Source: a virus
Virus genome (UHGV): UHGV-2124687
Length of the DNA: 13,465 nt
Direction: 5' to 3' (one strand)
The notes beneath the pieces are model-generated. The model was not told where the DNA came from. It saw only the letters and a list, made by a program, of their open reading frames with translations, and ran no database searches. Made by a program: the position numbers and the translations under genes. Each line of letters opens with the position of its first letter. Positions within the stretch are counted from its first letter, which is position 1. Positions 1 to 13,465 of the stretch are shown here, piece after piece.

Positions 1-1472
1 GTGGTGGCGATATCTATGATCAGCAGCGGGGTTACTTCAGCGATGAGGTGGCCGGTGCAGGTAACTACGCCTTCCGCTTCTTCTTTACCCATAATGTCAG
101 TACGTCCGGAAAGCAGGTCGTTCAGCGCGTGAGCAATCTCAATTTCGCGGGCATCCATCGGCAACCGATCGTCTTCATGATCGGTCACTTCCGTTTTTTC
201 ACCTTCATTTGAGGCGCTATTGGCAAATGCCGCCTCCAGCTCTCTGTCGAGTTCCGCAGCGCGAGCAGGGCAGACTGCTGGTAATTCAGTTTTGTCCTGT
301 AAAGTCTGTTCGGTTTGATCATTGTGAGATGTCTCATCAATTTTTTGTGGCAGCGGGGCGGATGTGCGGCCGCAGGCGATATCAACAATCAGCGGATCTG
401 GATTGGCGTGATCTGACTCAGTAAGATTTTTATTGATGTACTCGCGCAGCTTTACGGGGTCGCGGTAGATATCCTCCGGGGAGGATTTAATAAGGGCGAT
501 AATTGCTGCCTTTGAATAATCCAGAATACCGGGCGTGCGGCGGAACTGTTTCCACCAGGCGGTAAAGCGCTCATCGGTGCCGGTTTCTTCCATTTTTTTT
601 GCACGCTCATGAACAGCATGTGGCAGTTCGTAGATGTCGAAATCCATAGCAATACCCAGAATACCAAGGCACGTCTCATGGCGCAGGGTTGCCAGCGTAT
701 GGGGAAGAACGCGATCGGTTTGGTTTCCGCCGCCCAGGGTGCAGCCTGATTCGGTGTGCGTCTCGTTGCCGGTTTCTGCGCTGTCTGTGGTTAATTTGAC
801 GGGTTCGCGTTGCGCGGGCGGAGTTTCGATCCACTTAACAATCGGCCTTTTGAAATCGGGCCATTGTGCCGTTTCTTTGACAGTTGCACGCAGATGCGCC
901 AGCAGTTCTTCCTGACGTTCCGGCAGCAGCGCCAGCACGCGAGATTCCCGGGCGATGGCTTCAGCCATTTCACGAGCAAAACTGCTTTCTTCATCGTTTA
1001 CCAGATCCATTACCTGACCGTATTGATTGGCTGTGATTTCCTCAGCAGGTCCAAACAGCACCAGGCTGGCGGCGCGATAGTTAGCTGGTAACGGTCTTAC
1101 CGCTGTCATTTTCTCTGCGGTTGCACCATCGTTCTGCTGGCCATCATCAGCAAGTTCAGGCTCAACCAGCACGCGTTCAGGTTTGCCAGCTTCAGCATTC
1201 CAGACAATTTCATCTGAGAAAAAATCAGGAGTTAATACGCCCATAAGTTCAGGTCGTGGGACGTCTTCGATGTCCTCCCATACTTTAGGTTTGAAATAAT
1301 CATCAGCAAGTTCTGGTGCAAATTGCAGAAAAATTCCGTGTAACATCACCTGTGCCGCGGATTTATTTTTTGCTCTCACAGCGCCAGCGTAAACGGGAAG
1401 GTCCTTATTTTTATCAAGCGAACCCTTTTTAGGTTCGAGCATTCCAGAAAAAATATTTAATTCAATAGTCAT
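1..1472 (-). CDS. recE: Exodeoxyribonuclease VIII (RecE)-like protein, N-terminal ~490 aa; 3' end lies beyond the left window edge
   Basis: Hand translation of the minus strand from ATG at 1472-1470 (GAGG 6 nt upstream) gives an uninterrupted frame to position 1, starting MTIELNIFSGMLEPKKGSLDKNKDLPVYAGAV and containing ...NKNLTESDHANPDPLIVDIACGRTSAPLPQ..., which matches my recollection of the E. coli RecE N-terminal region. Not in the ORF track because no stop is in the window. Identity is from memory, not a search. Confidence 0.55.
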   Translation of the reverse strand, partial: MTIELNIFSGMLEPKKGSLDKNKDLPVYAGAVRAKNKSAAQVMLHGIFLQFAPELADDYFKPKVWEDIEDVPRPELMGVLTPDFFSDEIVWNAEAGKPERVLVEPELADDGQQNDGATAEKMTAVRPLPANYRAASLVLFGPAEEITANQYGQVMDLVNDEESSFAREMAEAIARESRVLALLPERQEELLAHLRATVKETAQWPDFKRPIVKWIETPPAQREPVKLTTDSAETGNETHTESGCTLGGGNQTDRVLPHTLATLRHETCLGILGIAMDFDIYELPHAVHERAKKMEETGTDERFTAWWKQFRRTPGILDYSKAAIIALIKSSPEDIYRDPVKLREYINKNLTESDHANPDPLIVDIACGRTSAPLPQKIDETSHNDQTEQTLQDKTELPAVCPARAAELDRELEAAFANSASNEGEKTEVTDHEDDRLPMDAREIEIAHALNDLLSGRTDIMGKEEAEGVVTCTGHLIAEVTPLLIIDIAT

Positions 1473-1479
1473 AACAACC

Positions 1480-1680
1480 TCAATAATGTTTATGTGAATG
1501 GCGCGCATTGCCTCTGCTTAAATTGCAGCGCCGCGGTTCATGAATTTGTTTGTAGGAGATAGCATGCTCAAGGCTACAGAAATAAGCAGTCACTACTCTC
1601 TTATGCATTCTCTTTGTTGATTTATACATGGAGTCATCAGAACTCCATTTTTTGCAATACGGACAGCACTCAAGTGTCAC
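1480..1680 (-). CDS. Hypothetical small Cys/His-rich protein (66 aa), GTG start
   Basis: ORF-track ORF; GGAGGG immediately upstream of the GTG, but spacing is short and composition is unusual. Could be spurious. Confidence 0.25.
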   Translation of the reverse strand: MTLECCPYCKKWSSDDSMYKSTKRMHKRVVTAYFCSLEHAISYKQIHEPRRCNLSRGNARHSHKHY

Positions 1681-1805
1681 TTACCCTCCCTGCATGGCTG
1701 GCTATGACAGGGCCATCATTGATAGATATAGTTAGCCCTGCCAGTTAAGACATAAATAAAAACTCTCTTAATTGTTTGAAGTTATTGAAGGGGGTAAATA
1801 AAAGT

Positions 1806-1991
1806 TCAGCGTAAAAATTCGCTAATATTAACCCTCTGGTCGTTAACTATTTTGGTCATTACTTTGATGAAACACATATCCAGCACCGCTTCATCTTTGT
1901 ATTTTTGAACGCCGGTTATATCAGCCACAGCTTTTTTATATTCAGCTTCAGCTGTGCGCCGGACAATATCTTCTCTGGTAAATTTAACCAT
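1806..1991 (-). CDS. Hypothetical early-left operon protein (61 aa, MVKFTREDIVRRTAEAEYKK...)
   Basis: Internal ATG of ORF 1806..2063; start overlaps the stop of the upstream gene by 8 nt (ATGGTTAA), suggesting coupling. Position matches the small kil/racC-like genes of Rac-type prophages. Confidence 0.45.
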   Translation of the reverse strand: MVKFTREDIVRRTAEAEYKKAVADITGVQKYKDEAVLDMCFIKVMTKIVNDQRVNISEFLR

Positions 1992-2178
1992 TGGCACGCA
2001 CCATCCTGAGTAAAGATTCCGTGTGATCGAGAGCTGCCTTCTGTTGTTCGTAAAGTGCTTCAAGTTCAGTTGTAAGGCGGTCGCGAAAAACAGGAACGCT
2101 TAACTGATAAATAAAATTATTTACTGAGCTTTCCACATCAGGATCCTCGTCCGGTATAACTGGCTGTGAATTTTTCAT
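1984..2178 (-). CDS. Hypothetical early-left operon protein (64 aa, MKNSQPVIPDEDPDVESS...)
   Basis: Internal ATG of ORF 1984..2244 with GGAGGG just upstream; same strand and operon context as recE. Confidence 0.45.
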   Translation of the reverse strand: MKNSQPVIPDEDPDVESSVNNFIYQLSVPVFRDRLTTELEALYEQQKAALDHTESLLRMVRANG

Positions 2179-2255
2179 AAACCCTCCGGTAAAAAAGGTG
2201 CCCATTGTGGGAGATGGGCAAAGACCACGCGGCACACACAGCAATTAATCACATC

Positions 2256-2321
2256 TGCAAGCGCACTCCGCCTGTTTCACGCCTGTCACCCATAACTGGT
2301 AAGTGAAGGAGTGCGCTTGCA
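2256..2321. repeat. Perfect 14-bp inverted repeat (TGCAAGCGCACTCC / GGAGTGCGCTTGCA) with a 38-nt spacer
   Basis: Read directly; spacer holds a short direct repeat GCCTGTTTCAC / GCCTGTCAC. Lies in the untranslated stretch at the 5' end of the early-left gene block. Confidence 0.6.
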
Positions 2322-2467
2322 TGTTGCGCCCTGAAAAAGGCTGGCGGTTACCGGAAATACACGGGAAAACACCGGGCCGCCAGAACAGGGGTCTACTTCT
2401 TATTGCTTTAGCCTGCTTTTAACCACATCAGGCGCGGTGGATCCTGCTATTCCCCAACAGTCAGGAA

Positions 2468-2476
2468 TGCGATAAT
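2468..2476 (+). promoter_or_regulatory. Candidate extended -10 element (TGcGATAAT) for the plus-strand accessory gene
   Basis: TG-n-GATAAT about 20 nt upstream of the GAGG and TTG at 2495; no good -35. Confidence 0.3.
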
Positions 2477-2494
2477 CTGGACATCCGAGGTAGA

Positions 2495-2809
2495 TTGATC
2501 AGATGGTCAATCATCAGCCAATTCAATTGCAAAGGCACATCGACCATGGTTTCACTTATTCGAAATAAAGGTAATACATCCACGGGTGTGCACATGCTTC
2601 AAAGGTCTGGCAAGCAATTCAAATTCCGCTGCGATATGGATACTTTGAAACGCCTGACATCTAGAAGCGTCAAACCAGAATTTGAGTATCTTTTTCGTAA
2701 GCGAACTGATGGCGTTTATCATTCAGAACTTTTTGATTCAATTGAAGAAGGAAAAATTGTTCTTTGTCAGTTTGTTCAAAGAGTTACTGGAGAACCATGT
2801 ACCGCCTGA
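2495..2809 (+). CDS. Hypothetical protein, AT-rich accessory gene in the rexAB/sieB-equivalent position (104 aa from TTG; 87 aa if ATG at 2546)
   Basis: ORF-track ORF on the opposite strand to both neighbours; GAGG 4 nt before the TTG; strong intrinsic terminator ~55 nt downstream; low GC relative to flanks. No family recognised. Confidence 0.4.
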   Translation: MIRWSIISQFNCKGTSTMVSLIRNKGNTSTGVHMLQRSGKQFKFRCDMDTLKRLTSRSVKPEFEYLFRKRTDGVYHSELFDSIEEGKIVLCQFVQRVTGEPCTA

Positions 2810-2863
2810 ATATTGGTTAACTCAGCTACCTATGATCAGAATGTCCAGATTATTAAAGAGCGA

Positions 2864-2892
2864 AGCGTCCAGTAGGGCGCTTTTTTGTTTTT
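2864..2892 (+). terminator. Rho-independent terminator
   Basis: Stem AGCGUCC / GGGCGCU (one G-U pair), loop AGUA, then UUUUUUGUUUUU. No U-run on the other strand, so plus-strand specific. Confidence 0.6.
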
Positions 2893-3053
2893 GGCCCTGT
2901 ATCGCCAGGGTAAGCGGAACATTTGATTCTGAGTAATCACTGCGTGTGGTTACTTGATGGAATAAGGTTAAGATTGCTAACCAAGTTTGGCAAGTTGTTT
3001 TTGGTAATAAAACTAAACAAAAGAGACGTAAGAAGATAACTTACTGAAAAAGG

Positions 3054-3461
3054 TTATTTTTTTTCTGTTCGTTTGCGGGCTTTTAGGAGTTCTTCGAAGA
3101 GCTGGTTGAAGTTTTCAACTCGAGCCCGGAGATTTTGGATTTGAGCTTGTTGCTCTGATTCTGGCAAAGAGCGATAGAGCTCAAGCATCTCTTGTTCATC
3201 AACGCTTAAAGTTCTCTGCTCTTCAATTGAGACTGGTTCTGCAGGAGTCTGGTCTTCATCACCAAACAAAATCCAAGTAGGGCTGCACTGGAGCACCTTA
3301 GCAAGTGCATGCAGGTTCTTACCTGAAGGCTCTGTGTTGTCACTTTCCCATAGCGAAATAGTGGCGTGCGATATCCCGAGAGCTTTTCCAAGATCTCGCT
3401 GCGTTAACCCAACATCTTTGCGTCGACGTAATACTCGACGACCTAAAGTTTCACTATTCAT
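3054..3461 (-). CDS. dicA: DicA-like HTH (XRE-family) prophage repressor, 135 aa
   Basis: Translation has an N-terminal HTH (GLTQRDLGKALGISHATISLWE) and the tail ...AKVLQCSPTWILFGDED...LPESEQ...RARVENFNQLFEELLKARKRTEKK, closely matching my recollection of E. coli DicA (same length). Divergent from a Cro-like gene. Confidence 0.9.
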   Translation of the reverse strand: MNSETLGRRVLRRRKDVGLTQRDLGKALGISHATISLWESDNTEPSGKNLHALAKVLQCSPTWILFGDEDQTPAEPVSIEEQRTLSVDEQEMLELYRSLPESEQQAQIQNLRARVENFNQLFEELLKARKRTEKK

Positions 3462-3474
3462 GTTTAGATATCTT

Positions 3475-3496
3475 AATTCTTCTTGACTAAAGAATT
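3475..3496. promoter_or_regulatory. Candidate operator: inverted repeat AATTCTT-N8-AAGAATT with TTGACT in the spacer
   Basis: Read directly in the 82-bp divergent intergenic region; TTGACT at 3483-3488 is a -35-like hexamer pointing toward the Cro-like gene. Binding not established. Confidence 0.4.
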
Positions 3497-3543
3497 CTCA
3501 CCAAATAACCTTGTTAAATAAACTCAACAAACGAGGTTGCTTA

Positions 3544-3783
3544 ATGTACAAAATTGATGCCGTGAAATTTTTCGGCACAAACACTCAAGTGGCACATGTT
3601 GCTGGCGTCGACCGCTCTGCTGTAAGTCAATGGAAAGAACTTGTTCCCGAGCGCTGTGCTCAGCGTCTCTCTGATGCCTCAAATGGCGCACTCATCTACG
3701 ACAAAGACGTTTATGACCGTTACCGCCAGGCCAAACGCCTTGGTAAACAGAATACCTGCATAACCAAGAAGGAATCTGATTGA
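3544..3783 (+). CDS. ydaS: YdaS-like Cro-type HTH protein, 79 aa
   Basis: ATG at 3544 with GAGG 7 nt upstream; motif AHVAGVDRSAVSQWKELVPERCAQRLSDAS matches the YdaS/Cro-like pattern; divergent from the repressor; stop overlaps the next start (TGATG). Confidence 0.75.
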   Translation: MYKIDAVKFFGTNTQVAHVAGVDRSAVSQWKELVPERCAQRLSDASNGALIYDKDVYDRYRQAKRLGKQNTCITKKESD

Positions 3784-4514: not shown

Positions 4515-5605
4515 GCAGCAAATTACACGGTCTTGTATGGGAAGGGTGCGCTCCTGCTGGATTGGGAATTTCCCGCGTTGCGCTTATGGCCCGCCTGGCT
4601 GATTACAGCAATGCTGACGGCATATCGTGGCCAGCGATTGAGACGCTCAGGATTGAGATCGGCGCTAAAAGCGATACGACAATAAAAACTGCTTTAGCTG
4701 AGCTTGTTAAGGGCGGCTGGATTAAAAAAACAGAACGCAAGCTGGGTGGAAGAAATCTGACAAATGTTTATCAGATTGATATCGCAAAACTCGAAGAAGC
4801 GGCAGCAGAGGGGCGTAAAAAAATACGGGAAGAGAGAGCCAAAAAGAAAGGTTCCCGTTGCCTGCCAGCAGGGCAGGAAGATAAGGCGTCAATTTTTGAC
4901 CCGTCAAATAATGACCCCTTAAAAGAGGATGGTAAGGGGGCAGATTTTGACCCGTCAAAAATTGAGGGGTCAAAAATTGGTGAAAACAGCGATTTAACCC
5001 CCCCAAAAATTGACCCCGATCCGTCATTAAAACCTGATCCGTCATTAAACCCCACACATAACACGCGAGGGGGAGAGGTCGAACCAGTTCATAACAATCC
5101 GGTTCCTGAATATCCCGGACAGCCTGGTATGAATTTTCCCGCCGGAGAGTCATTTGGGAAGGTCCCAATGACCATTGACTGGAAACCGTCGGCTGACTTT
5201 CGCCAGCGCGTTGGATTCTGGGGCATAACGATCCCGGATGGACTGAACCTCAGAGGCGAGCTGAACAGCTTCATTGCCTACTGGCAGCCAGAGAATAAAG
5301 TTTTTTACCAGTCGCAGTGGGAGCAGAAATTTGCCCGCCACCTGCAACAGGCCAAACCCACTAAACCGCGAGGTAACTCACATGCAGGACTGGATCCAAA
5401 CTCCACAGCAAACGCAGCTGTACAGCGAGCACGCGCAGCACACGCTGCACAACTCCGCGCTCGAGGAGAAGGCGTGGAAGTTCTGGGTTCTCATGCTGGA
5501 AATATACTCCAGCCGGTGGGAAACCAAAAACGGATCGGCTCCGTCGGACCTATGGATTGCTCAGATTGGGAATTTGACCAGCGACCGGATGACGAGCGTC
5601 TGTAA
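4511..5605 (+). CDS. Replication initiator (O-like): N-terminal DNA-binding domain, low-complexity linker, DnaT-like C-terminal domain
   Basis: GTG start coupled to the upstream gene; C-terminal block PMTIDWKPSADFRQRVGFWGITIPDGLNLRGELNSFIAYWQPENKVFYQSQWEQKFARHLQQAKP resembles the DnaT C-terminal domain. The last ~74 codons overlap the P-like gene out of frame and are Ala/Arg-rich, so the true 3' end is uncertain. Confidence 0.7.
   Translation: MSSKLHGLVWEGCAPAGLGISRVALMARLADYSNADGISWPAIETLRIEIGAKSDTTIKTALAELVKGGWIKKTERKLGGRNLTNVYQIDIAKLEEAAAEGRKKIREERAKKKGSRCLPAGQEDKASIFDPSNNDPLKEDGKGADFDPSKIEGSKIGENSDLTPPKIDPDPSLKPDPSLNPTHNTRGGEVEPVHNNPVPEYPGQPGMNFPAGESFGKVPMTIDWKPSADFRQRVGFWGITIPDGLNLRGELNSFIAYWQPENKVFYQSQWEQKFARHLQQAKPTKPRGNSHAGLDPNSTANAAVQRARAAHAAQLRARGEGVEVLGSHAGNILQPVGNQKRIGSVGPMDCSDWEFDQRPDDERL
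4893..5049. repeat. Iteron-like repeat cluster inside the initiator gene; candidate replication origin
   Basis: TTTTGACCCGTCAAA at 4894 and 4945, related TTGAGGGGTCAAAA at 4962, TTGACCCC at 5010, and GATCCGTCATTAAA twice (5018, 5035). Falls in the low-complexity linker coding region, as the lambda origin does in O. Confidence 0.55.
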
Positions 5606-6057: not shown

Positions 6058-6720
6058 ATGGATACCATTTTAGACGTACTGAAAGCGATGGAAAAAGCGA
6101 CTGCCCGTGAAATTGCGGCACGTATGAAAATTGAGCCTGCGGCGGTGATCGGGATGCTGCGTGAACACGAAGAACGTAACGAGGTTATTCAGGTTAACGG
6201 GTATTGGAAGGTTTCTACCGGGGAAGTTAAATCACAGCCAAAAGCGATCAGTTCTTTCAGCAAAGCGCCGGTAAGTGTATCAGTCAGCGACGTCATCGCA
6301 TTACTGGCGGAACATGGGCCACAGACATCCCTTGAGCTGGCAACACTGGCAGGTATTGAGTCAAAACGTGTGGCGCCAATGCTGACTCACCACATGACAA
6401 AAGGGCGGATCATCCGCGAAAAAGTAGGCAGCAAGTTTGTTTATTCGGTGCCGGCCACTGCGTCAGTGAAAAACAAAAGCTCTGCACCACGGGAACCGGA
6501 AACATCAACACCACTGGTACCAGAAAAATCTGTCACTGAAATTGTTGAGGAAATCCCCGCTTTCGTCAGCCGTCCTGATGATCTGCTGATCCCAACGGTA
6601 CGCGGTATCTCAAGTGAAATTCGGCGCACAAAAGCGAAGCTGGCTAACCTGGAAAAACTTCGTGAAGCCGTTCGCAGCATTCGCAAACACGGTGCGCTGA
6701 TGCAGGAGCTGGTGCAATGA
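6058..6720 (+). CDS. Phage protein with two winged-helix-like segments (DUF1627-like), 220 aa
   Basis: GGAGA upstream of the ATG; two helix-turn-helix-like stretches (DVLKAMEKATAREIAARM...; SDVIALLAEHGPQTSLELATLAGI...). Family name from memory. Confidence 0.55.
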   Translation: MDTILDVLKAMEKATAREIAARMKIEPAAVIGMLREHEERNEVIQVNGYWKVSTGEVKSQPKAISSFSKAPVSVSVSDVIALLAEHGPQTSLELATLAGIESKRVAPMLTHHMTKGRIIREKVGSKFVYSVPATASVKNKSSAPREPETSTPLVPEKSVTEIVEEIPAFVSRPDDLLIPTVRGISSEIRRTKAKLANLEKLREAVRSIRKHGALMQELVQ

Positions 6721-6926
6721 AACAGTCTGAGTTACCACGCTGTCCGACCTGCGGAAATATGCCCGAATACGCGCTAAAGCCTAACTATATGGGTTGGGTA
6801 TGGGGTGGATTGAAATGCCCGTATGACCATTATCGTGTGAATTTGAATGGTCCAGCCGCTAGCCGCGCACAGGCAGAGAAAAAGCTGGCGCCACAGTGGA
6901 TTGAACTTGTCGAAAAAATAAACTAG
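6717..6926 (+). CDS. Small zinc-ribbon-like protein, possibly Lar-family restriction alleviation, 69 aa
   Basis: ATGA start/stop overlap with the upstream gene; CPTCG motif plus a downstream C and H. Lar assignment is tentative. Confidence 0.5.
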   Translation: MKQSELPRCPTCGNMPEYALKPNYMGWVWGGLKCPYDHYRVNLNGPAASRAQAEKKLAPQWIELVEKIN

Positions 6927-6937
6927 GGAAAAACAGC

Positions 6938-7270
6938 ATGAAACCAACCTACTGGGGACTAGCAGCACAACTCGCTAAGGCTGAGAGCAAGTACAGGGAA
7001 TTGGTAGCGGAGAATGGACATGCGCGTAGACGACATATATTTATCCGTGCTCTGGCGGTTTTGATTCTTGAGCATAGTGGCGGCCGTATAAACTGGCGTG
7101 GTGCGATGGAAGACGCCGGGCACTACCCGGCGCATCAATTGCCATTATTTGCCAGAGATCACTCCCCAGGAATGTTGGCCAACTCCAAAAGCAAATGCCA
7201 AGAAAATAAGTCCAGACCAACGCTCAATCCCTTCCGCCATTATGAGCATCGCTATTCCTATGCCTGCTAA
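6938..7270 (+). CDS. Hypothetical protein; 3' part doubtful
   Basis: ORF-track ORF with a weak RBS; the last ~125 nt overlap the convergent membrane-protein ORF and translate to low-complexity sequence, so it may be shorter or degraded. Confidence 0.3.
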   Translation: MKPTYWGLAAQLAKAESKYRELVAENGHARRRHIFIRALAVLILEHSGGRINWRGAMEDAGHYPAHQLPLFARDHSPGMLANSKSKCQENKSRPTLNPFRHYEHRYSYAC

Positions 7271-7339
7271 TGGAATACCTAATATGATGAAGAGGAGCAC
7301 CGAACAGATAACTTGGGTTGTCGTGGGTTGATGAGACAT
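7145..7339 (-). CDS. Small hydrophobic protein, 64 aa, two predicted transmembrane segments
   Basis: Two hydrophobic stretches (VICSVLLFIILGIPLAGIGIAMLIMA; GLIFLAFAFGVG); AAAGGTG upstream of the ATG; TATAAT (complement of 7380-7385) ~40 nt upstream in an AT-rich block. Confidence 0.45.
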   Translation of the reverse strand: MSHQPTTTQVICSVLLFIILGIPLAGIGIAMLIMAEGIERWSGLIFLAFAFGVGQHSWGVISGK

Positions 7340-7541
7340 GTTAACACCTTTAATGAAGGAAACCGTCTGGGCGCAATTTATTATAGTTTTTATATATTTC
7401 CATTAAGTAACTTTGCTTTTGTTATTTACTGTGCCTTCCATGGGCGCGGAAAGCATATTAAAAAAAGCTACTCATATCTTCAATTCACCAATTTTGGTGG
7501 GGCAATAGTTGCGCTGGAGCGTACAACTTACCATACAAGCG

Positions 7542-7560
7542 NNNNNNNNNNNNNNNNNNN
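7542..7560. other. Run of 19 N (gap or masked bases)
   Basis: Literal n characters in the sequence. Confidence 1.
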
Positions 7561-7569
7561 CGGCAATAC

Positions 7570-7590
7570 AGGCCTCCTTGGAGGCCTTTT
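7570..7590 (+). terminator. Candidate intrinsic terminator
   Basis: GGCCUC / GAGGCC stem followed by UUUU; sits just after the N gap, so its transcript is unknown. Confidence 0.4.
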
Positions 7591-7607
7591 CGATGCTTAG
7601 AGTGTAT

Positions 7608-7722
7608 AGGTGGTGCTGGTTAACTGAAGCAATGGTGAGGGATAATCTGCCGTAGTTGTGTCAGCAGAAACAAATGGCAGCTTAATAAAATATTGCTAAT
7701 TAAACCCGGTACGGCAGGTTTT
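7608..7722 (+). ncRNA. Copy A of a ~100-nt terminator-ending element (candidate sRNA family; terminator stem degenerate in this copy)
   Basis: About 78% identical by eye to 10912-11029; shared blocks GCAATgGTGAGGG, CAGCAGAAA, TAATAAAA, TGCTAATT, AACCCGnTACGGCnGGTTTT. Confidence 0.25.
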
Positions 7723-7752
7723 CTTTTTCACTTCATCAATCTCTGCTACGAT

Positions 7753-7781
7753 TCCCTATCTTTTACTGATGGGGATAGGGA
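7753..7781 (+). promoter_or_regulatory. Hairpin that would sequester the RBS of the small peptide gene
   Basis: 8-bp inverted repeat TCCCTATC / GATAGGGA with a 13-nt loop; the 3' arm is the G-rich SD-like stretch ending 2 nt before the ATG at 7783. Confidence 0.4.
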
Positions 7782-7782
7782 T

Positions 7783-7950
7783 ATGAAGAAAGTTCTTGTT
7801 GCTTTATTGTTGTCACTTTTCTCAGTGACAGCAACGGCAGCAAACAAGCCATGCTCAGGTAAGAAAGGCGGAATATCGCATTGCTCGGGTGAAAAGTTTG
7901 TTTGTAATGATGGCTCTATCAGCAAGTCTAAGAAGGTTTGTCAGAAATAG
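7783..7950 (+). CDS. Small secreted peptide, 55 aa: signal peptide plus ~33-aa Lys-rich mature part with four Cys
   Basis: Internal ATG of ORF 7693..7950; N-terminus MKKVLVALLLSLFSVTATAA looks like a Sec signal peptide (no lipobox); mature part NKPCSGKKGGISHCSGEKFVCNDGSISKSKKVCQK; terminator-like hairpin ~30 nt downstream. Confidence 0.55.
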   Translation: MKKVLVALLLSLFSVTATAANKPCSGKKGGISHCSGEKFVCNDGSISKSKKVCQK

Positions 7951-7982
7951 TTGCCGATAAATGGCACTCACCATCAAAAACA

Positions 7983-8004
7983 AACCCGCTATGGCTGGTT
8001 TTTT
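7983..8004 (+). terminator. Terminator hairpin, third copy of the element's 3' module
   Basis: AACCCGCUAUGGCUGGUUUUUU, one mismatch in the stem; same module as at 7703-7725 and 11007-11029, followed by the same ACTC tail. Confidence 0.4.
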
Positions 8005-8070
8005 ACTCTCTATTGGATACGCTATTTTTTAGGCATTAAGAGCGATTAGTAGGACGCTTCTGGAGAAGGC

Positions 8071-8268
8071 GTGGATTCAACGAACGACGAAGAAAAGCGC
8101 ATAGAATTTGAAAAATTCATCATTGAAAAGTTTGGTGATGCAGTTGATCTCCGCAGGGCGAAAAATGGCGATAACGGATATTTATCATGGGAGGCGGCAG
8201 TAGCATGGACTGTCTGGCGGGAGCGCTCATCTCATCATGAAACAACGTCTACCTCTGGCGAGAACTGA
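8071..8268 (+). CDS. Hypothetical acidic protein, 65 aa, GTG start
   Basis: GGAGAAGG directly upstream of the GTG at 8071; first ORF of three overlapping ORFs in three frames. Confidence 0.4.
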   Translation: MDSTNDEEKRIEFEKFIIEKFGDAVDLRRAKNGDNGYLSWEAAVAWTVWRERSSHHETTSTSGEN

Positions 8269-8461
8269 TTTAGTATGGTGCTGCCCGGAGCTTCCTGTTA
8301 ATCACTATGTACTCCCGTTTAGCCACGTCATTTTAGATTTGGTTTTGGTCCGCTATGAGCGAGGAGCAGAAGTTCGTAATTCCTTTAGACAATCCTCCAG
8401 GGAGGTTATGATAAAATATACAGCCATAAAGCCTATAGGGAGTGGACATGACATTGTTTGA
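8237..8461 (+). CDS. Hypothetical protein, 74 aa (weakly supported)
   Basis: ORF-track ORF overlapping its neighbours by 32 nt and 20 nt; weak RBS. May be a frameshifted remnant. Confidence 0.25.
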   Translation: MKQRLPLARTDLVWCCPELPVNHYVLPFSHVILDLVLVRYERGAEVRNSFRQSSREVMIKYTAIKPIGSGHDIV

Positions 8462-8822
8462 GGAATGTAAGGAACTGCTCAAGACAGATTTTAATGTTGT
8501 GGAAGGGGATGATTTGAGCGCGATAATGGATATTTTTCATCAATATCCATGGCATAGCGGTAATCTCAGATGGTCGGAAATGGACTTCAGCGATTATGAA
8601 CTTAGTCATGATATGTTTAACGGGGGCGGTTTAGGCAATGAAACTGTATTTGTCATAGCGGATGATGCGAATGTACCCGTGTTCAGAACCCATCTACAAC
8701 TCATTGTCGATAATATCTACGATGTCATCGCCATATCACCTAACCTATTTATTTTTAATGATAAAATAATGATTAAACCTTTATTCCCTCATAATTATAT
8801 ACGGTTTGGTCTGCGAAAGTGA
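8442..8822 (+). CDS. Hypothetical protein, 126 aa, strongly AT-rich
   Basis: GGGAG upstream of the ATG; AT-rich codon usage unlike the phage backbone. Immunity-protein-like is only a guess; no family recognised. Confidence 0.45.
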   Translation: MDMTLFEECKELLKTDFNVVEGDDLSAIMDIFHQYPWHSGNLRWSEMDFSDYELSHDMFNGGGLGNETVFVIADDANVPVFRTHLQLIVDNIYDVIAISPNLFIFNDKIMIKPLFPHNYIRFGLRK

Positions 8823-9091
8823 TGAGCAGAAATACTGACCAGCTCCCCGTTGTTCAACTAAGACTTGTTATTGACAACTTCCGCTAATGGCACGGAGCGG
8901 ACAGGCCAAGCGACTTGTCAGGTCGGCTATGAGCGAAAAGCTGACATTAATTAAACCACAGGAAAGCTACCTGTCCAGAGAGAATGGTCAGGGGAGCAAA
9001 CGGTGAGCTCCATTAAGTTGTCGCTGCTTTTCTCGGGCTGTCAGCGCAAGCCGGAGATGGGCAGAAAAAAAGTCGTGTCTGGATCGCTAAA

Positions 9092-9587
9092 TCAAAGTGT
9101 CATCATCATTTCATGCCATGCCATTCCACCGTGGTCCGATTCTGACGGTTTGATGTACTGGTAACCAAAATGGGCGTACAGATCGACGTGGCGGTCTTTG
9201 CACATCAGGTGAATGGTTTTTTTGTTCATTGCTATCATGCGCGTCACAAATTCACGCATCAGTAATGATGAATATCCTTTGCCCTGGTAATCAGGGTGCA
9301 CCACGACAGACATAATCACTGCATTGGGTGCATCCGGATCGTGACCTACCAGTTCTTTGAACTCTTCGTCGGACATCACGACTTCCCACGCACAGCCCGC
9401 ATTAATGAAACCAATAACGTCACCGTTCAACTCCATGCATANNNNNNNNNNNNNNNNNNNNNNNNNNNNNNNNNNNNNNNNNNNNNNNNNNNNNNNNNNN
9501 NNNNNNNNNNNNNNNNNNTGTGATTTCAATATCATAGCAACGATCAACATCGGCATCAGTGGCCTGACGGAATACAGGGGTAGACAT
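9092..9587 (-). CDS. GNAT-family N-acetyltransferase, interrupted by the N run
   Basis: Start reconstructed by hand at 9587 (MSTPVFRQATDADVDRCYDIEIT...), upstream of the track ORF 9092..9556; downstream part has a GNAT-like core (HPDYQGKGYSSLLMREFV). Frame across the gap is undefined. Confidence 0.8.
9442..9518. other. Run of 77 N (gap or masked bases) inside the GNAT gene
   Basis: Literal n characters in the sequence. Confidence 1.
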
Positions 9588-9723
9588 AGCCTTGCCTCTT
9601 CAGATTCATTTGTTTGGAATTATACTATCTTTTTTTTATCCTGCTTTCGCTGCATTTTATTCAACACTAAAATGTAGAATATTCATTTATTGTGTTTTAA
9701 ATAATATCTGAGAAAGAAGAATC

Positions 9724-10695
9724 ATGATGTCAACGTTGCGCAAGATCGATCTGAATTTATTGCTTATATTCGATTCTCTTTATCGGCATGGAAGCGTGAC
9801 GGAGGCCGCCAACGAACTGGCACTAAGCCCATCCGCACTAAGTCATGCGCTCAATCGCTTACGTACATCACTGGACGATCCCTTATTCGTGCGCACTGGT
9901 GGAAGCATGGTGCCCACGTCAAAAGCTGAAAGCATTGCAGCAAGTATTTCTGCCGCTCTAGGAAGTCTCTCGTCCTGCCTGCATGAGCCAGAACACTTTG
10001 AGCCGGAAAAAAGCCGGGAGAGTTTTACCTTTGCTGCTACGGACTACACTGCCGCCGCTATCCTGCCAAGCTTGATCGCGAGGGTTAACAGCCTTGCGCC
10101 GGGCATTACCATTAAGCTTATCTACTCACGCGATTTTAACGCCGACGAAGATTTGCTTTCAGGCAAAGTTGATTTCGCCCTTGGCTTTGAAGAAGAGCAG
10201 AAAGCCCCACGGCGCGGCATAGAGTCGATTACTTGCTTTACTGATGATTACGTGGTTGCAGTGCGACGCGGTCATCCTAATATCCAGGATTCCCTTACCC
10301 AAGAGCGTTATCTGAGCGCCGGACACGTAGTGGTGCGTCCATGGTTGGAAAGACGGGGGGGGATCGACCGTTATCTGGAAAGTCAGCAGGTACGTCGCCG
10401 GGTCGTTGTTGAATTGCCAAGCCTGATGATTGCCCCAATTATCGTTTCGAATACTGATCTGGTTATCACGCTTCCCAAGCGGGGGATCTCATCAGTTTTT
10501 GATATGAAAAATCTGGTGGTGTTTGCTCCCCCGTTCCCGACACCACAGTACATTTTGAAAGCCTATTACAGCCCGGCACTCGGTAACTCGCCAGGGCATA
10601 TATGGATGAGGGGGCAAATTTTGCAGGTTTGTGATCCGCTAAATCCGGCGATGCCAGTAATTGCTGTCGATACAAATTCTGGTACAGAAAGGTAA
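9724..10695 (+). CDS. LysR-family transcriptional regulator, 323 aa
   Basis: N-terminal LysR-type HTH (KIDLNLLLIFDSLYRHGSVTEAANELALSPSALSHALNRLR) and typical length; divergent from the GNAT gene across a 136-bp AT-rich region. Confidence 0.9.
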   Translation: MMSTLRKIDLNLLLIFDSLYRHGSVTEAANELALSPSALSHALNRLRTSLDDPLFVRTGGSMVPTSKAESIAASISAALGSLSSCLHEPEHFEPEKSRESFTFAATDYTAAAILPSLIARVNSLAPGITIKLIYSRDFNADEDLLSGKVDFALGFEEEQKAPRRGIESITCFTDDYVVAVRRGHPNIQDSLTQERYLSAGHVVVRPWLERRGGIDRYLESQQVRRRVVVELPSLMIAPIIVSNTDLVITLPKRGISSVFDMKNLVVFAPPFPTPQYILKAYYSPALGNSPGHIWMRGQILQVCDPLNPAMPVIAVDTNSGTER

Positions 10696-10911
10696 TCCGA
10701 TCATCTTTACTGCTCTCTAACTAGCTATCAGTTTAATGAATTCCTAGTAATTTAAAGCAGGGAGCGTTCATTATGTGACTCATGTCGAAGCTTAGTGTCA
10801 GGGAGAGAGGTAGTAAGACTTCGAAATTGTTGGACGTCTGCTTCTGGCACTATCCAGCCCTTTGCTGATTGAAAAAGACGAATGAAAGTTGGATACGCTT
10901 TACCTCATGGT

Positions 10912-11029
10912 CACACAGTTGCTCACTGATGATGCAATAGTGAGGGCGAATCTCTCGGATTGTGCCAGCAGAAAGAAACTGCCGCATAATAAAACACTGC
11001 TAATTCAACCCGCTACGGCGGGTTTTTTT
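10912..11029 (+). ncRNA. Copy B of the ~100-nt element, ending in a perfect intrinsic terminator (candidate sRNA)
   Basis: Homologous to 7608-7722; terminator AACCCGC-UACG-GCGGGUU then seven U at 11007-11029. Lies between the LysR stop and the dinI promoter with no ORF. Confidence 0.3.
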
Positions 11030-11096
11030 GTTTTACTCCTGACAGGAAATTAACAATTTGTGCTCTTAAAACGTTGATCATTTCCGTGCATGAGTA

Positions 11097-11116
11097 TACT
11101 GTATAAAAAAACAGTA
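11097..11116. promoter_or_regulatory. LexA box (SOS operator) over the dinI promoter
   Basis: TACTGTATAAAAAAACAGTA matches the CTGT-N8-ACAG consensus; overlaps a TATACT -10-like hexamer (11095-11100) with TTGATC at 11074-11079. Confidence 0.75.
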
Positions 11117-11134
11117 TATGCAATGGAGGCCATT

Positions 11135-11371
11135 ATGAAAGTTGAATTAACCATTGATCGCATGAAAGAACTTCCTAAAGGCGCGGTTCCAGCACTGGAG
11201 AAAGAATTACTTAACCGCCTGAATGATCACTATGACAATTGCAGGCTTACAATCCGGCGCGCAGGGTCGAATGGGTTAAGTGTTTTTGGCGGTGACAAGG
11301 ACGATAAAAAGAAAATTGAATCAATCCTCCAGGATACCTGGGAAAGTGCAGACGAGTGGTTTGTTAATTAA
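11135..11371 (+). CDS. dinI: DinI-family DNA-damage-inducible protein, 78 aa
   Basis: GGAGG 5 nt upstream of the ATG; MKVELTIDRMKELPKGAVPALEKEL...LSVFGGDKDDKKKIESILQDTWESADEWFVN closely matches recalled E. coli DinI. Confidence 0.9.
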   Translation: MKVELTIDRMKELPKGAVPALEKELLNRLNDHYDNCRLTIRRAGSNGLSVFGGDKDDKKKIESILQDTWESADEWFVN

Positions 11372-11383
11372 CACCCCTTAGCT

Positions 11384-11406
11384 GGTAGCTCCTGCTGCCA
11401 TTTTTT
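11384..11406 (+). terminator. Candidate intrinsic terminator after dinI
   Basis: GGUAGC-UCCU-GCUGCC (one G-U pair) then AUUUUUU, 13 nt after the dinI stop. Confidence 0.5.
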
Positions 11407-13153: not shown

Positions 13154-13223
13154 CCATTCATGCTTGGCAGAGCTGCGCCACGATGGCAGCGACGAAAAGC
13201 GAACAATTTGAATATAACGAGAA

Positions 13224-13244
13224 CCCCGCCAGCGCGGGGTTTTT
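13224..13244 (+). terminator. Rho-independent terminator (tR'-like)
   Basis: CCCCGC-CAGC-GCGGGG then UUUUU. Confidence 0.7.
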
Positions 13245-13259
13245 GCTTTCCGGCGATAC

Positions 13260-13302
13260 GACAGGGGTATTCGCGAACGTGCTACGGCACAGTACCCCTG
13301 TC
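13260..13302. repeat. 10-bp perfect inverted repeat (GACAGGGGTA / TACCCCTGTC) enclosing a smaller GTGC-TACG-GCAC hairpin
   Basis: Read directly, just after the tR'-like terminator; no U-run follows. Confidence 0.5.
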
Positions 13303-13465
13303 ACATCGTCGGTCTAATCATAGAAAATATAAAAGCGTGCCGTTTCGCGGGCTTTATCGTCTCTGGAGTCTGGGTGTCGAAAATTAAAACAATACCTAAT
13401 ACGATATATTTATCCTGACTTATCCAATTTTTCTGCAGAGGTATTTATCTTTGATAACACCATCA

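Follow-up and report, generated by a model that had tools for sequence, protein, structure and literature searches.

The core of the cargo block upstream of dinI in the viral genome UHGV-2124687 (positions 8348-10859 of the 13,465-nucleotide stretch analysed, hereafter the window) is probably a two-cassette array of a kind that is widespread in enterobacterial temperate phages. Its cassettes, an orphan contact-dependent-inhibition (CDI) immunity gene and a GNAT/LysR gene pair, are bounded by conserved palindromic sites, and these candidate recombination sites are a more important feature of the region than the AT-rich insertion described in the original prediction. Such sites appear to serve for the exchange of cargo in many enterobacterial phages and some plasmids, and genes for anti-phage defence are among this cargo.

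Two cassettes are bounded by palindromic core sites

The block lies in a lambdoid prophage, with replication genes on one side and dinI/rusA/Q on the other. Its core sites are 24-bp palindromes of the form GTCCGCT-nn-core-nn-AGCGGAC, in which the core is TGGCAC (A-type) or GAGCGA (B-type), and the array is ordered B-site, cdiI, A+B junction, GNAT/LysR, A-site. Its features are as follows.

8237-8461: ORF spanning the cassette junction at 8357-8362, no family match
8348-8371, plus strand: B-type opening site, GTCCGCT-AT-GAGCGA-GG-AGCAGAA, core 8357-8362
8448-8822, plus strand: orphan cdiI, 124 aa from its ATG; the ORF opens at GTG 8442
8835-8858, plus strand: conserved box CTGACCAGCTCCCCGTTGTTCAAC, 20-45 nt upstream of the A-site
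8879-8945, plus strand: internal junction, consisting of an A-type site, a spacer and a B-type site
8879-8902, plus strand: A-type site of the junction, TTCCGCT-AA-TGGCAC-GG-AGCGGAC, core 8888-8893
8922-8945, plus strand: B-type site of the junction, GTCGGCT-AT-GAGCGA-AA-AGCTGAC
9092-9587, minus strand: GNAT acetyltransferase, 163 aa once unmasked, Acetyltransf_1 E=3e-10
9442-9518: second N run, a mask for 73 real bases inside the GNAT gene
9724-10695, plus strand: LysR-family regulator with HTH_1 and LysR_substrate domains
10836-10859, plus strand: A-type closing site, GTCTGCT-TC-TGGCAC plus a degenerate right arm (TATCCAGCC), core 10845-10850

Homology of the cdiI cassette to its plasmid and prophage copies begins at the opening B-site. 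At the other end of the array, homology of the GNAT/LysR cassette to the retrieved loci L004, L009 and L010 stops at 10850, and homology of the dinI-side flank to Escherichia coli PSJ-22 (L001) begins at 10847. A search of the window for the junction site with up to three mismatches gave one match versus 0.00 expected by chance. The junction is the left half of the first junction of L011 and the right half of its second, joined at TGGCAC, and blastn located 8875-8902 on both sides of the extra cassettes in L006 and L010-L012. In near-identical prophages, whose flanks are 99.3-99.8% identical, an insertion was found exactly at 8879-8945; it encodes a fused AriAB of the PARIS system (E=6.9e-137) in some and a Type IIG/ISP restriction enzyme in others. 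In a direct reading of the junction alignments, many unrelated cassettes carried the box CTGACCAGCTCCCCGTTGTTCAAC at their 3' end. The two segments, cdiI (8348-8902) and GNAT/LysR (8875-10850), also turn up independently of each other, with 97-100% identity, at other places in prophages and on plasmids. The ORF at 8237-8461 is probably not a gene, being a chance reading frame across a cassette junction.

The cassettes carry an orphan CdiI and a GNAT/LysR pair

The reading of 8442/8448-8822 as an unknown ORF was rejected by a Pfam match to PF24172 (E=5e-35, 121 bits against a gathering score of 33.2) and by PDB 5T86 chain I, matched over the full length (residues 1-124, E=8e-39), which identified CdiI. 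The cassette spans ~8363-8887; neither cdiA nor cdiB is in the window, and no cdiA remnant was detected there. The same ~550-bp cassette, 84-99.8% identical and with the same ends, was found on six plasmids and in L010-L012. The usual place of known orphan cdiI modules, which are accompanied by cdiA-CT fragments, is downstream of a cdiBAI locus. The window gene resembles orphan cdiI genes of CDI systems in being a full-length, EcoliA0-like CdiI with a solved relative and with its toxin absent, but it differs in being a free-standing cassette of prophage and plasmids.

The GNAT gene appears frame-broken in the window because 73 real bases are hidden by the second N run; in L004-L010 the gene is intact and encodes 163 aa, and its full sequence was taken from L005. 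LysR is divergent from GNAT across an intergenic region (9588-9723) of 28% GC, and the identical LysR protein was always paired with GNAT, in at least three unrelated contexts. The segment 8875-10850 is 97-100% identical in L004, L009 and L010. Going by family membership alone, the orphan CdiI should neutralise one class of CDI toxin from neighbouring bacteria in the lysogen, and the array would also supply a LysR-regulated GNAT acetyltransferase.

GNAT had no match in PADLOC, which detected no known anti-phage system among the genes now in the block. The sole defence-type gene in the block is the orphan CDI immunity gene, whose family is already characterised. The proposal that the block harbours an uncharacterised accessory or defence function was supported for the site, where near-identical prophages carry PARIS or Type IIG/ISP genes, and not for the genes now present.

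Arrays of the same kind are widespread and polar

The A-site was found in more than 120 viral contigs, and a Rac-type flank in 1,016 of 5,426 E. coli genomes. L004 and L009 contain seven cassettes, separated by the same sites in a single orientation, with none elsewhere in the 20-kb loci; none of 80 shuffled loci contained the site. The cassettes fell into 112 families (median 1.6 kb, 41% GC), with contents that include PD-Lambda-4, PARIS, CBASS, restriction enzymes and AbiL, and their genes lie on either strand (100 versus 72). The first junction was B-only in 26 of 34 arrays and the last was A-only in 36 of 40; by strict matching, internal junctions were A+B (16), A (13) or B (13). The A-to-B spacing was 42 nt in 41 of 54 cases. 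Only two core types are dominant in enterics, and in enteric loci the sites occur only at cassette junctions.

Site orientation is independent of the direction of neighbouring backbone transcription (window compared with Rac and P2 types), which therefore argues against a purely RNA-level role. In metagenome-assembled genomes (MAGs) of Alphaproteobacteria, the palindrome is a dispersed, REP-like extragenic repeat found in tandem pairs after gene ends, with many copies per genome. This could mean that recombination is secondary to a structural or RNA-level function of the element.

Exchange is confined to the 6-bp cores

Loci were retrieved by an exact A-site pattern, which predetermined the arms and left information only in the free dinucleotides and the flanks. 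Among 112 unique A-site contexts, the dinucleotide left of TGGCAC tracked the left flank (z=11.9) but showed no such link with the right flank (z=0.7), and the dinucleotide right of TGGCAC tracked the right flank (z=15.1). One A-site right flank was joined to 15 different left flanks, and its right dinucleotide was constant in 15 of 16. The corresponding tests on 122 B-site contexts gave z=14.4, 0.6 and 9.4. The z-scores of both sets are inflated by related loci, with the asymmetry between the tests serving as an internal control. Because the dinucleotides on either side covary only with their own flank, these results indicate that the exchange point lies inside the cores TGGCAC and GAGCGA.

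We propose that a cassette consists of one or two genes, probably with their own promoters, and that neighbouring cassettes are divided by a junction in which two 24-bp palindromic core sites lie 42 nt apart, the array opening with a B-site at one backbone flank and closing with an A-site at the other. An array would gain, lose or swap cassettes when DNA breaks inside a 6-bp core and is rejoined to a core of the same type (A to A, B to B). With a different core on each side of a slot, its cassette could be replaced by two exchanges, as in recombinase-mediated cassette exchange. Since 9-bp inverted arms around a 6-bp core are the layout of a tyrosine-recombinase site, we infer that a site-specific recombinase performs the exchange. 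No recombinase gene was found near the arrays: the genes that recur beside them belong to the backbone, and a tyrosine recombinase is only now and then part of the cargo. Nor was an excised circle or an intermediate of exchange observed.

An alternative that we consider unlikely is that the junction folds in single-stranded DNA, as two hairpins or one long, imperfect, attC-like hairpin, and that cassettes move as single-stranded circles after the loop or core is cut by an HUH/Y1 enzyme (RAYT, IS200-like) or by an integron-type integrase in trans. Each site is indeed a palindrome with a 7-bp stem, the whole A+B junction can be folded as one hairpin with A arms pairing B arms (L011), two simple sites plus a spacer resemble attC as established for integrons, and the REP-like distribution in Alphaproteobacteria fits a RAYT-type partner. 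However, single-strand folding of the junctions was only modestly better than that of shuffles (z -1.4 to -2.2, weakly significant), no HUH or IntI genes were seen near the arrays, direct reading of the arms revealed no integron GTTRRRY core, and the cassette genes are not co-oriented. Like-with-like exchange of two core types also fits the overlap-region requirement of double-strand exchange better.

It is distinctly unlikely that the sites are passive REP-like hairpins at gene ends, with RecA, Red or RecET shuffling the cargo through short homology and no dedicated enzyme. Such hairpins could be mRNA stabilisers, terminators or protein-binding sites, and the dispersal of the same palindrome family after gene ends in Alphaproteobacteria, the lack of a recombinase gene near the arrays and the outer modules of the block (ydcA and a 100-nt repeat), which resemble homologous shuffling, are in keeping with this explanation. 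Lambdoid phage recombinases also act on short homologies (established knowledge; PMC3945230). If general recombination worked over a patch of 24-70 bp, breakpoints should be scattered, yet exchange is restricted to the central hexamer although identical runs within a site are only 6-7 bp, and the right dinucleotide never moves with the left flank nor the left dinucleotide with the right flank. The junction-only occurrence of enteric sites, their single orientation, the fixed 42-nt spacing and the B-first/A-last polarity also argue against passive palindromes.

The arrays resemble known cassette systems and differ from each

Site-specific exchange at the cores, the reading that we favour, can be compared with several known systems. 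In the variable Z/fun locus of P2-like phages, which lies between the tail genes G and FI, the cargo of WPhi is bounded by the same A-type and B-type sites and P2 has the A-site flank; the window array differs in lying in the lambdoid nin region by dinI, outside the P2 tail operon. Nilsson, Karlsson and Haggard-Ljungquist (2004, Mol Biol Evol 21:1) reportedly proposed site-specific recombination at P2 variable loci, and may have described the P2 version of the palindromic sites. P2/P4 hotspots are like the arrays in that their cargo is diverse, AT-rich and often defensive. The P2 hotspot analysed in Rousset et al. 2022 (PMC9122126) and in PMC13586616 is the cos-proximal one, and boundary palindromes, hairpins and motifs are unmentioned in these two papers.

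Integron cassettes, including those of CALINs, are likewise small and promoter-independent, form site-separated arrays with one site orientation and include defence genes among their cargo; an attC junction is also two inverted-repeat simple sites plus a spacer, capable of forming a hairpin and with a fixed exchange point. In contrast, the phage arrays reside in phage genomes, lack IntI and an attI platform, have GTCCGCT/AGCGGAC arms instead of RYYYAAC/GTTRRRY cores, contain two heterospecific exchange points per junction instead of one, and carry genes on either strand. The pdif modules of Acinetobacter plasmids are also small, with ~24-28 bp sites of two arms and a 6-bp centre and no module-encoded recombinase, pointing to a host enzyme in trans. 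The sites of pdif modules conform to the XerC/XerD dif consensus and alternate in orientation around the modules, whereas the phage-array arms are unrelated to dif and all sites point in the same direction.

Lambdoid morons (the Juhala/Hendrix concept) are extra genes of deviant composition between backbone genes, which the phage can do without and which presumably benefit the lysogen, a description that the ydcA module fits. The moron concept has no defined recombination site, whereas two of the window modules have precise shared boundary sites. With REP/BIME elements and their RAYT transposases, the arrays share a short palindrome that, in the Alphaproteobacteria MAG matches, is multicopy and lies as tandem pairs behind gene ends, but in enterobacterial loci it was observed at cassette junctions alone. 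A RAYT gene was not seen, and the array palindrome is not known to be related in sequence to the E. coli REP consensus.

The block is prophage cargo and a mosaic of modules

The left flank (cI, cII-like, O, P and DUF1627) and the right flank (dinI, DUF968, RusA and Q) of the block are lambdoid backbone. Among E. coli genomes with the same dinI-rusA-Q module, the gap between the replication gene P and dinI is empty in WEM25, and the block position is occupied by other nin genes in KL53, by ydcA only in KMi029 (L002) and by one different cassette in PSJ-22. Because these relatives have nothing or other genes there, the block is cargo and not phage backbone, as originally proposed.

The GC content is 44.8% in the block, 47.6% in the whole window and 49-52% in the adjacent backbone. 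Low GC is local, at 39% in the cdiI cassette, 42% in the ydcA module and 28% between GNAT and LysR; LysR itself is 50.5% GC, and positions 1200-3600, at 42% GC, are equally AT-rich. A dip to 0.27 in the GC profile is partly due to Ns. The composition is therefore patchy, as had been noted, and its AT-richness is moderate.

The block had been delimited as one unit at 7340 and 11040, but comparison with related prophages gives several modules with separate limits, indicating that it is a mosaic and that a single insertion can be rejected. It is very improbable that 7340-11040 arrived as one AT-rich piece with a defence function: E. coli relatives lack the block as a whole and its GC is below that of the adjacent backbone, but ydcA occurs alone in KMi029, the 65-aa anchor of the array accompanies another cassette in PSJ-22, cdiI is alone on plasmids, GNAT/LysR is alone at tail-fibre-proximal arrays, LysR is not AT-rich, and PADLOC matched no gene present. 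That the block genes are conserved nin-region functions of the phage lineage is scarcely credible, since the at least three assemblies with an identical block (L005, L007 and L008) are near-clonal copies of this prophage (99.4-100% identical), L008 keeps the block although its immunity and replication module is another one, the internal junction is different in L006 and L011, and the E. coli relatives lack the block.

Outer modules and flanking genes

The features outside the array are as follows.

6717-6926: zinc-ribbon-like ORF, 69 aa, left neighbour of the block
7145-7339, minus strand: putative 64-aa ORF with two predicted TM helices, from the ORF list, with an AGGTG-type RBS
7542-7560: first N run, a mask over 18 real bases, read as ATATAGGGATTCCCATAT in L005
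7625-7728, plus strand: ~100-nt element, copy 1, a remnant of a DNA methyltransferase 3' end plus a terminator-like hairpin
7783-7950, plus strand: ydcA-family gene, 55 aa, secreted, with a signal peptide and cysteine-containing
8071-8268, plus strand: 65-aa ORF, conserved left anchor of the cassette array
10928-11032, plus strand: ~100-nt element, copy 2, the 5' edge of the dinI module, ending in the terminator AACCCGCTACGGCGGGTTTTTTT
11135-11371, plus strand: dinI (DinI PF06183, E=1.8e-25), backbone, right neighbour of the block

The 'Lar-like' label previously given to the left neighbour had no support in Pfam, NCBIfam or PHROGs at E<=0.01. Within the earlier gene list, the two-TM ORF, the secreted peptide and the GNAT/LysR pair stood, and the 'three unknown ORFs' proved to be CdiI, the junction-spanning ORF and the 65-aa anchor ORF. 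The 64-aa ORF is antisense to the 3' end of a 110-aa ORF (6938-7270), is absent from the L005 gene calls, had no match in Pfam, NCBIfam, PHROG or PADLOC, and had zero tblastn matches in 50,697 phage records. Both N runs do fall in the block, as had been pointed out, and are masks of no biological meaning; their reading as assembly gaps was rejected, as L005, L007 and L008 read through both.

The two ~100-nt elements form a direct repeat (D1, 7656-7728 and 10960-11032, 82% identical), which extends to ~7625 and 10928 by blastn to L001 and L002. In relatives the element is the 5' edge of the dinI module, and in E. coli it is annotated as a methyltransferase pseudogene fragment directly upstream of dinI. 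Rfam gave only sub-threshold matches for copy 1 (isrK, 20.7 bits versus a gathering score of 50). The copy 2 hairpin was the sole hairpin in the block to pass the terminator scan, and promoter and terminator consensus matches in the block were no more frequent than in shuffles.

The ydcA gene matched phrog_6000 (E=4.7e-26) and NCBIfam PRK10040 (E=1.8e-26, 91.7 bits, just below the 93-bit cut-off), and Pfam YdcA matches the identical gene in L005. Terminator-like hairpins (family D2, 7703-7724 and 7983-8004) flank the module. Positions 7690-8004 are 89.6% identical to KMi029, in which the ydcA segment lies directly upstream of the dinI module and the array is absent. Ordinary homologous-recombination shuffling at terminator-containing repeats may account for the ydcA module and for the second copy of the 100-nt edge of the dinI module.

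Positions 7983-8370 are 89.4% identical to PSJ-22, in which the 65-aa anchor is annotated as a hypothetical gene and is followed by a B-type site and a different cassette. The anchor ORF is kept in E. coli prophages, with weak coding constraint (8 synonymous versus 11 non-synonymous codon differences). On the right, dinI is conserved in 53 E. coli genomes, and a pattern match located a LexA-box-like CTGT-N8-ACAG upstream of it at 11099-11114.

A lambdoid prophage region with cargo at the block

The window was found to represent the early-right region of a lambdoid prophage, and the following backbone genes were assigned around the block at 7340-11040.

Backbone genes around the block
3054-3461, minus strand: cI-like repressor
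Left of the block: cII/YdaT-like gene, O with iterons, and P
6058-6720, left of the block: DUF1627 protein
Right of the block, in this order: dinI, DUF968/HNH-like gene, rusA, Q-like antiterminator

Pfam profiles were matched above threshold by the LysR protein (HTH_1 and LysR_substrate) and the GNAT protein (Acetyltransf_1, 7 and 10), and the dinI product matched the DinI profile above threshold, with a LexA-box-like motif upstream of its gene. Copies of 99.4-100% identity were present in several NCBI assemblies (L005, L007 and L008). Megablast matches to window 7000-11400 occurred in 53 of 5,426 complete E. coli genomes, none covering more than 21%; the host is an enterobacterium other than E. 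coli.

The original prediction regarded the block as cargo that universal presence of the same genes here would turn into backbone. Identical content was not universal, and E. coli prophages sharing the dinI-rusA-Q module differed at this position.

States of the slot in E. coli relatives
WEM25: P, methyltransferase fragment and dinI, with no other genes between
KL53: other nin genes, then the same methyltransferase fragment and dinI
KMi029: ydcA alone in the slot
PSJ-22: a 65-aa ORF, then a different single gene

Because these four alternative states defeat the backbone reading, the block is cargo. The genes listed for it were present, but one "unknown ORF" (8442/8448-8822) encodes CdiI, and another, at 8237-8461 upstream of cdiI, is probably a chance ORF, since it spans a cassette junction and has no family match. 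The claim of AT-richness applied to parts only: the block has 44.8% GC versus 47.6% for the window, and GC is low only in the cdiI cassette, at 39%, in the ydcA module, at 42%, and between the GNAT and LysR genes, at 28%, while LysR has 50.5% and the adjacent backbone 49-52%. The deviant composition by which morons are recognized was thus found in the cdiI cassette and ydcA, not in LysR. Both N runs, taken as a feature of the block, are masks; relatives that are unmasked have bases at these positions and an uninterrupted GNAT gene of 163 aa. Nor was the block inserted as one piece, as blastn against the fetched loci gave sharp, independent segments. As predicted, the block would be an ordinary moron region, a description that is only partly accurate; its interest lies in the underlying array of site-bounded cassettes.

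On the left, a 110-aa plus-strand ORF and a 64-aa minus-strand transmembrane ORF (window 6938-7339) share the stretch 7145-7270. The PHROG match of the 110-aa ORF is limited to its first 60 residues, GC falls at ~7200, and the minus-strand transmembrane peptide (7145-7339) had no homologue in the profile libraries and no tblastn match in phage genomes. The boundary between backbone and cargo probably lies inside this ORF overlap.

Two palindromic sites at cassette junctions

Examination of the junction sequences revealed an A-type site, the palindrome GTCCGCT-nn-TGGCAC-nn-AGCGGAC, and a B-type site, in which these arms enclose GAGCGA. The chance expectation of such sites is nil, and TGGCAC and GAGCGA were practically the sole cores in enteric loci. 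In 41 of 54 cases, the starts of the two sites were 42 nt apart, with the B-site downstream. Most arrays had a B-only junction at their beginning (26 of 34) and an A-only junction at their end (36 of 40).

Sites in the window
8348-8371: B-site
8879-8945: A+B junction
10836-10859: A-site with a degenerate right arm

In L004 and L009, seven cassettes each were separated by A/B sites in a single orientation, and the 20 kb were otherwise site-free. By blastn, the segment at 8348-8902, which carries cdiI, had matches of 98.5-99.8% identity in L010-L012 and on a plasmid of E. coli of the IncN type, and the segment at 8875-10850, which carries GNAT/LysR, was 97-100% identical in L004, L009 and L010, at the tail-fibre end of those prophages. 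The two segments share 28 bp, and in L006 and L010-L012 this 28-bp overlap was found on both sides of extra DNA, which encoded either a Type IIG/ISP restriction enzyme or PARIS with AriAB fused in one gene (E=6.9e-137). The window junction corresponds to a recombinant of two L011 junctions: its left half is that of the first, its right half that of the second, and the joint falls at TGGCAC.

A defence function had also been suggested for the block. Its own genes contain no known system by PADLOC (E<=0.01), where the only match was a marginal one of AbiEi to CdiI (E=0.0038), but sister loci carry AriAB or Type IIG/ISP in the same slot. In the near-identical prophage L006 (4700-9150), two IS5-family (DDE_Tnp_1) copies interrupt the PARIS-like cassette.

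A conserved box, CTGACCnGCTCCCCnTTnnTTAAC, was observed at window 8835-8858 and at equivalent positions in L004, L010, L011, L211 and others, at the 3' end of many unrelated cassettes. Because this box is conserved 20-45 nt upstream of the A-site, the functional junction may exceed the two core sites. At L010:11113-11230, the sequence that adjoins the array end, …GGTTCAAATCCTCTCGTGCGACCA, resembles the 3' half of a tRNA with a long variable arm; a gene for a umuD-like S24 peptidase and dinI come next. This tRNA-like sequence may be an att-site remnant; ARAGORN called no tRNA in L003, L004, L005 or L010.

An orphan cdiI gene in a recurrent cassette

The ORF at 8442/8448-8822 matched PF24172 (CdiI, EcoliA0-like) over residues 3-123 of 126 (E=5e-35, 121 bits versus a curated threshold of 33.2) and, over its full length (residues 1-124), chain I of PDB 5T86, which is the immunity protein (E=8e-39). 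Neither the window nor 20 kb of L005 contained cdiB or cdiA; this cdiI is an orphan immunity gene and not part of a cdiBAI locus. Its sequence points to a putative immunity of the lysogen to one CDI toxin class.

The cdiI cassette was found with the same ends on six plasmids from five genera. On the IncN-type plasmid NZ_CP032203.1 (L003, 7997-8590), it lies between repA and a resolvase gene and is followed by two A-type cores (TGGCAC). Since these replace the A+B pair, junction composition varies.

Exchange within the 6-bp core

A breakpoint scan is blind inside the fixed retrieval pattern, and covariation between core-adjacent dinucleotides and flanks was tested instead, using 112 unique A-site contexts in 80 left-flank and 54 right-flank clusters. 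We found that the dinucleotide left of TGGCAC followed the left flank (z=11.9) but showed no covariation with the right one (z=0.7), and that the dinucleotide right of TGGCAC covaried with the right flank (z=15.1). A single right flank was paired with 15 different left flanks, and its right dinucleotide was kept in 15 of 16 cases. B-sites behaved in the same way around GAGCGA, with z=14.4, 0.6 and 9.4 in the corresponding tests. This covariation is the signature of breakage and rejoining within the 6-bp core. So sharp a boundary is not expected from general recombination, because the identical runs per site are just 6-7 bp. With 7-9 bp inverted arms around a TGGCAC or GAGCGA hexamer, the sites have a tyrosine-type layout, and two different cores around a slot would allow a cassette to be replaced through two exchanges.

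No recombinase linked to the arrays was found by ORF clustering of 120 viral loci among the matches listed and 91 alphaproteobacterial loci, in which the recurrent array neighbours were backbone or ordinary chromosomal genes. A regular expression for tyrosine-recombinase box II returned nothing, and Pfam analysis of ten recombinase candidates gave one sporadic integrase and CBASS parts; the tyrosine recombinases near sites are sporadic cargo. In integrons and CALINs, IntI and attI adjoin the array, whereas no Phage_integrase was present among the called genes around the arrays of L004-L010. Integron attC sites carry RYYYAAC and GTTRRRY cores, whereas the arms here, by which the comparison was judged, are GTCCGCT and AGCGGAC. 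Integron cassettes are co-oriented behind a common promoter; in contrast, the cassette ORFs of at least 100 aa were split 100 to 72 between the strands relative to site orientation. To our knowledge, none of the sigma-54 promoter (TGGCAC-N5-TTGC), dif/Xer, Din-invertase and shufflon sfx sites matches beyond the hexamer.

A genome-collection scan detected the A palindrome in many Enterobacterales genera and, unexpectedly, in many MAGs of Alphaproteobacteria. The MAG copies occurred on several contigs per MAG, directly after ordinary genes, with a second palindrome ~20 nt later that had the same arms and another core (TGACCC or CGGGGG), often in tandem. The alphaproteobacterial loci (among the genome-contig hits L135-L254, for example L176, L185 and L221) came from Pseudolabrys, Xanthobacteraceae and Hyphomicrobiales, and the copies often stood directly 3' of ABC-type binding-protein genes ending in ...ADEVIE. 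In those MAGs, the palindrome looks like a REP/BIME-type repeat. REP/BIME elements have many intergenic copies per genome; in the enteric loci scanned, the sites were seen at junctions only. A loose density count of the arms alone gave no discrimination and was set aside.

This REP/BIME-like distribution leaves room for two less probable alternatives: a single-strand mechanism directed by the hairpin, and a primarily structural role of the palindrome. Folding of the junctions was just modestly better than that of shuffled sequences.

Spread and content of the cassettes

The A-site pattern was present in at least 120 viral contigs. A conserved flank just past the DUF977 gene of Rac-type prophages was found in 1,016 of 5,426 E. 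coli genomes, with cargo that reads [B] MFS-GGCT-LysR [A] DUF2254-BCCT [A]. In P2-like phages, at the Z/fun variable locus, a further flank is formed by the end of tail gene G, and WPhi has, in succession, the FI flank, a B-site, orf44, an A-site and the G flank. The Z/fun locus has its boundary sites in common with the window slot, but the P2 slot lies between G and FI and the window slot between the replication module and dinI. The exact flank at the dinI-side array end had no match in IMG/VR, and a conserved "array-start" flank of another phage type was absent from E. coli.

A total of 151 cassettes were bounded on both sides; they fell into 112 families, and their medians were 1.6 kb in length and 41% in GC. 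Many of the 150 cassette proteins matched PD-Lambda-4, AriA/AriAB, CBASS cyclase with SAVED/TIR, Type I, IIG and ISP enzymes, AbiL, mads or PDC candidates, and others were LysR regulators, transporters, EAL proteins and IS transposases. Viral contig L067 (1934-5963) carries a site-bounded, three-gene CBASS-like cassette (SAVED, SMODS cyclase and ThiF/E1-like).

We tentatively propose, with somewhat more doubt than confidence, that an integron-like system of uncharacterized mechanism is common to some plasmids and to the temperate phages (P2-like, Rac-like and other lambdoids) of Enterobacterales. The system would rest on two heterospecific palindromes of 24 bp, with TGGCAC and GAGCGA as their cores, and on a putative enzyme acting in trans, and it would underlie the changing content of prophage "defence hotspots". 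That this palindrome family forms a dispersed repeat in Xanthobacteraceae-type Alphaproteobacteria hints at a widely conserved recognizing enzyme.

Anti-phage systems have a major reservoir in prophage hotspots, the content of which turns over fast. With two short sites that can be searched for and an exchange point that is mapped, this turnover would become experimentally approachable, through an enzyme search and cassette movement. The sites would also allow cargo to be delimited from sequence and mined (many of the 112 families are unannotated), would join P2-type, Rac-type and other lambdoid prophages and plasmids in a single exchange network, and would suggest a natural two-site tool for cassette exchange. 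For the window, an "unknown AT-rich block" gains a defined anatomy and a testable phenotype, immunity to a CDI toxin class, and the array connects this block of the nin region with the cargo slots of P2 and Rac, with a testable mechanism of hotspot turnover.

Nilsson and colleagues are said to have proposed site-specific recombination at P2 variable loci in 2004. The P2 version of the sites may already be described in that paper (Nilsson et al. 2004). Literature searches, also with the literal site sequences, returned no description of the A/B sites; the hotspot papers (PMC9122126; PMC13586616) describe the diversity and mention no boundary palindromes or motifs, and boundary sites are not described in the papers examined that cite Nilsson 2004 or Odegrip 2006.

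Other sequence elements of the window

A direct repeat of ~100 nt is present at 7625-7728 and 10928-11032. It represents the conserved 5' boundary of the dinI module, of which there are thus two copies around the block. Known sRNAs were considered for this repeat and rejected: an Rfam scan of the whole window (E<=1) gave only sub-threshold hits (TarB, isrK and a plant miRNA model), with no match at the A/B junction, and the Pas sRNAs of lambdoid prophages are located near Q and the lysis genes, not dinI.

Consensus scans of the block found 8 promoters versus 8.0 in shuffled sequences and 3 terminators versus 3.6. The divergent GNAT/LysR intergenic region of 28% GC and hairpin/T-run elements can be read directly in the block. 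One strong hairpin with a T-run, AGGCCTCC-TT-GGAGGCCT-TTT, lies at 7570-7591 in the non-coding leader just past the first N run, with no obvious gene upstream on that strand.

The O-like replication gene contains, at 4875-5054, a cluster of direct and inverted repeats with TTTTGACCCGTCAAA units at a spacing of ~50 nt, which look like lambdoid ori iterons. Just 3' of the Q-like gene (13223-13312), a fourth terminator-like hairpin, ACCCCGCCAGCGCGGGGTTTTT, is accompanied by a 20-bp inverted repeat, at the position where a late-promoter and tR'-type region is expected.
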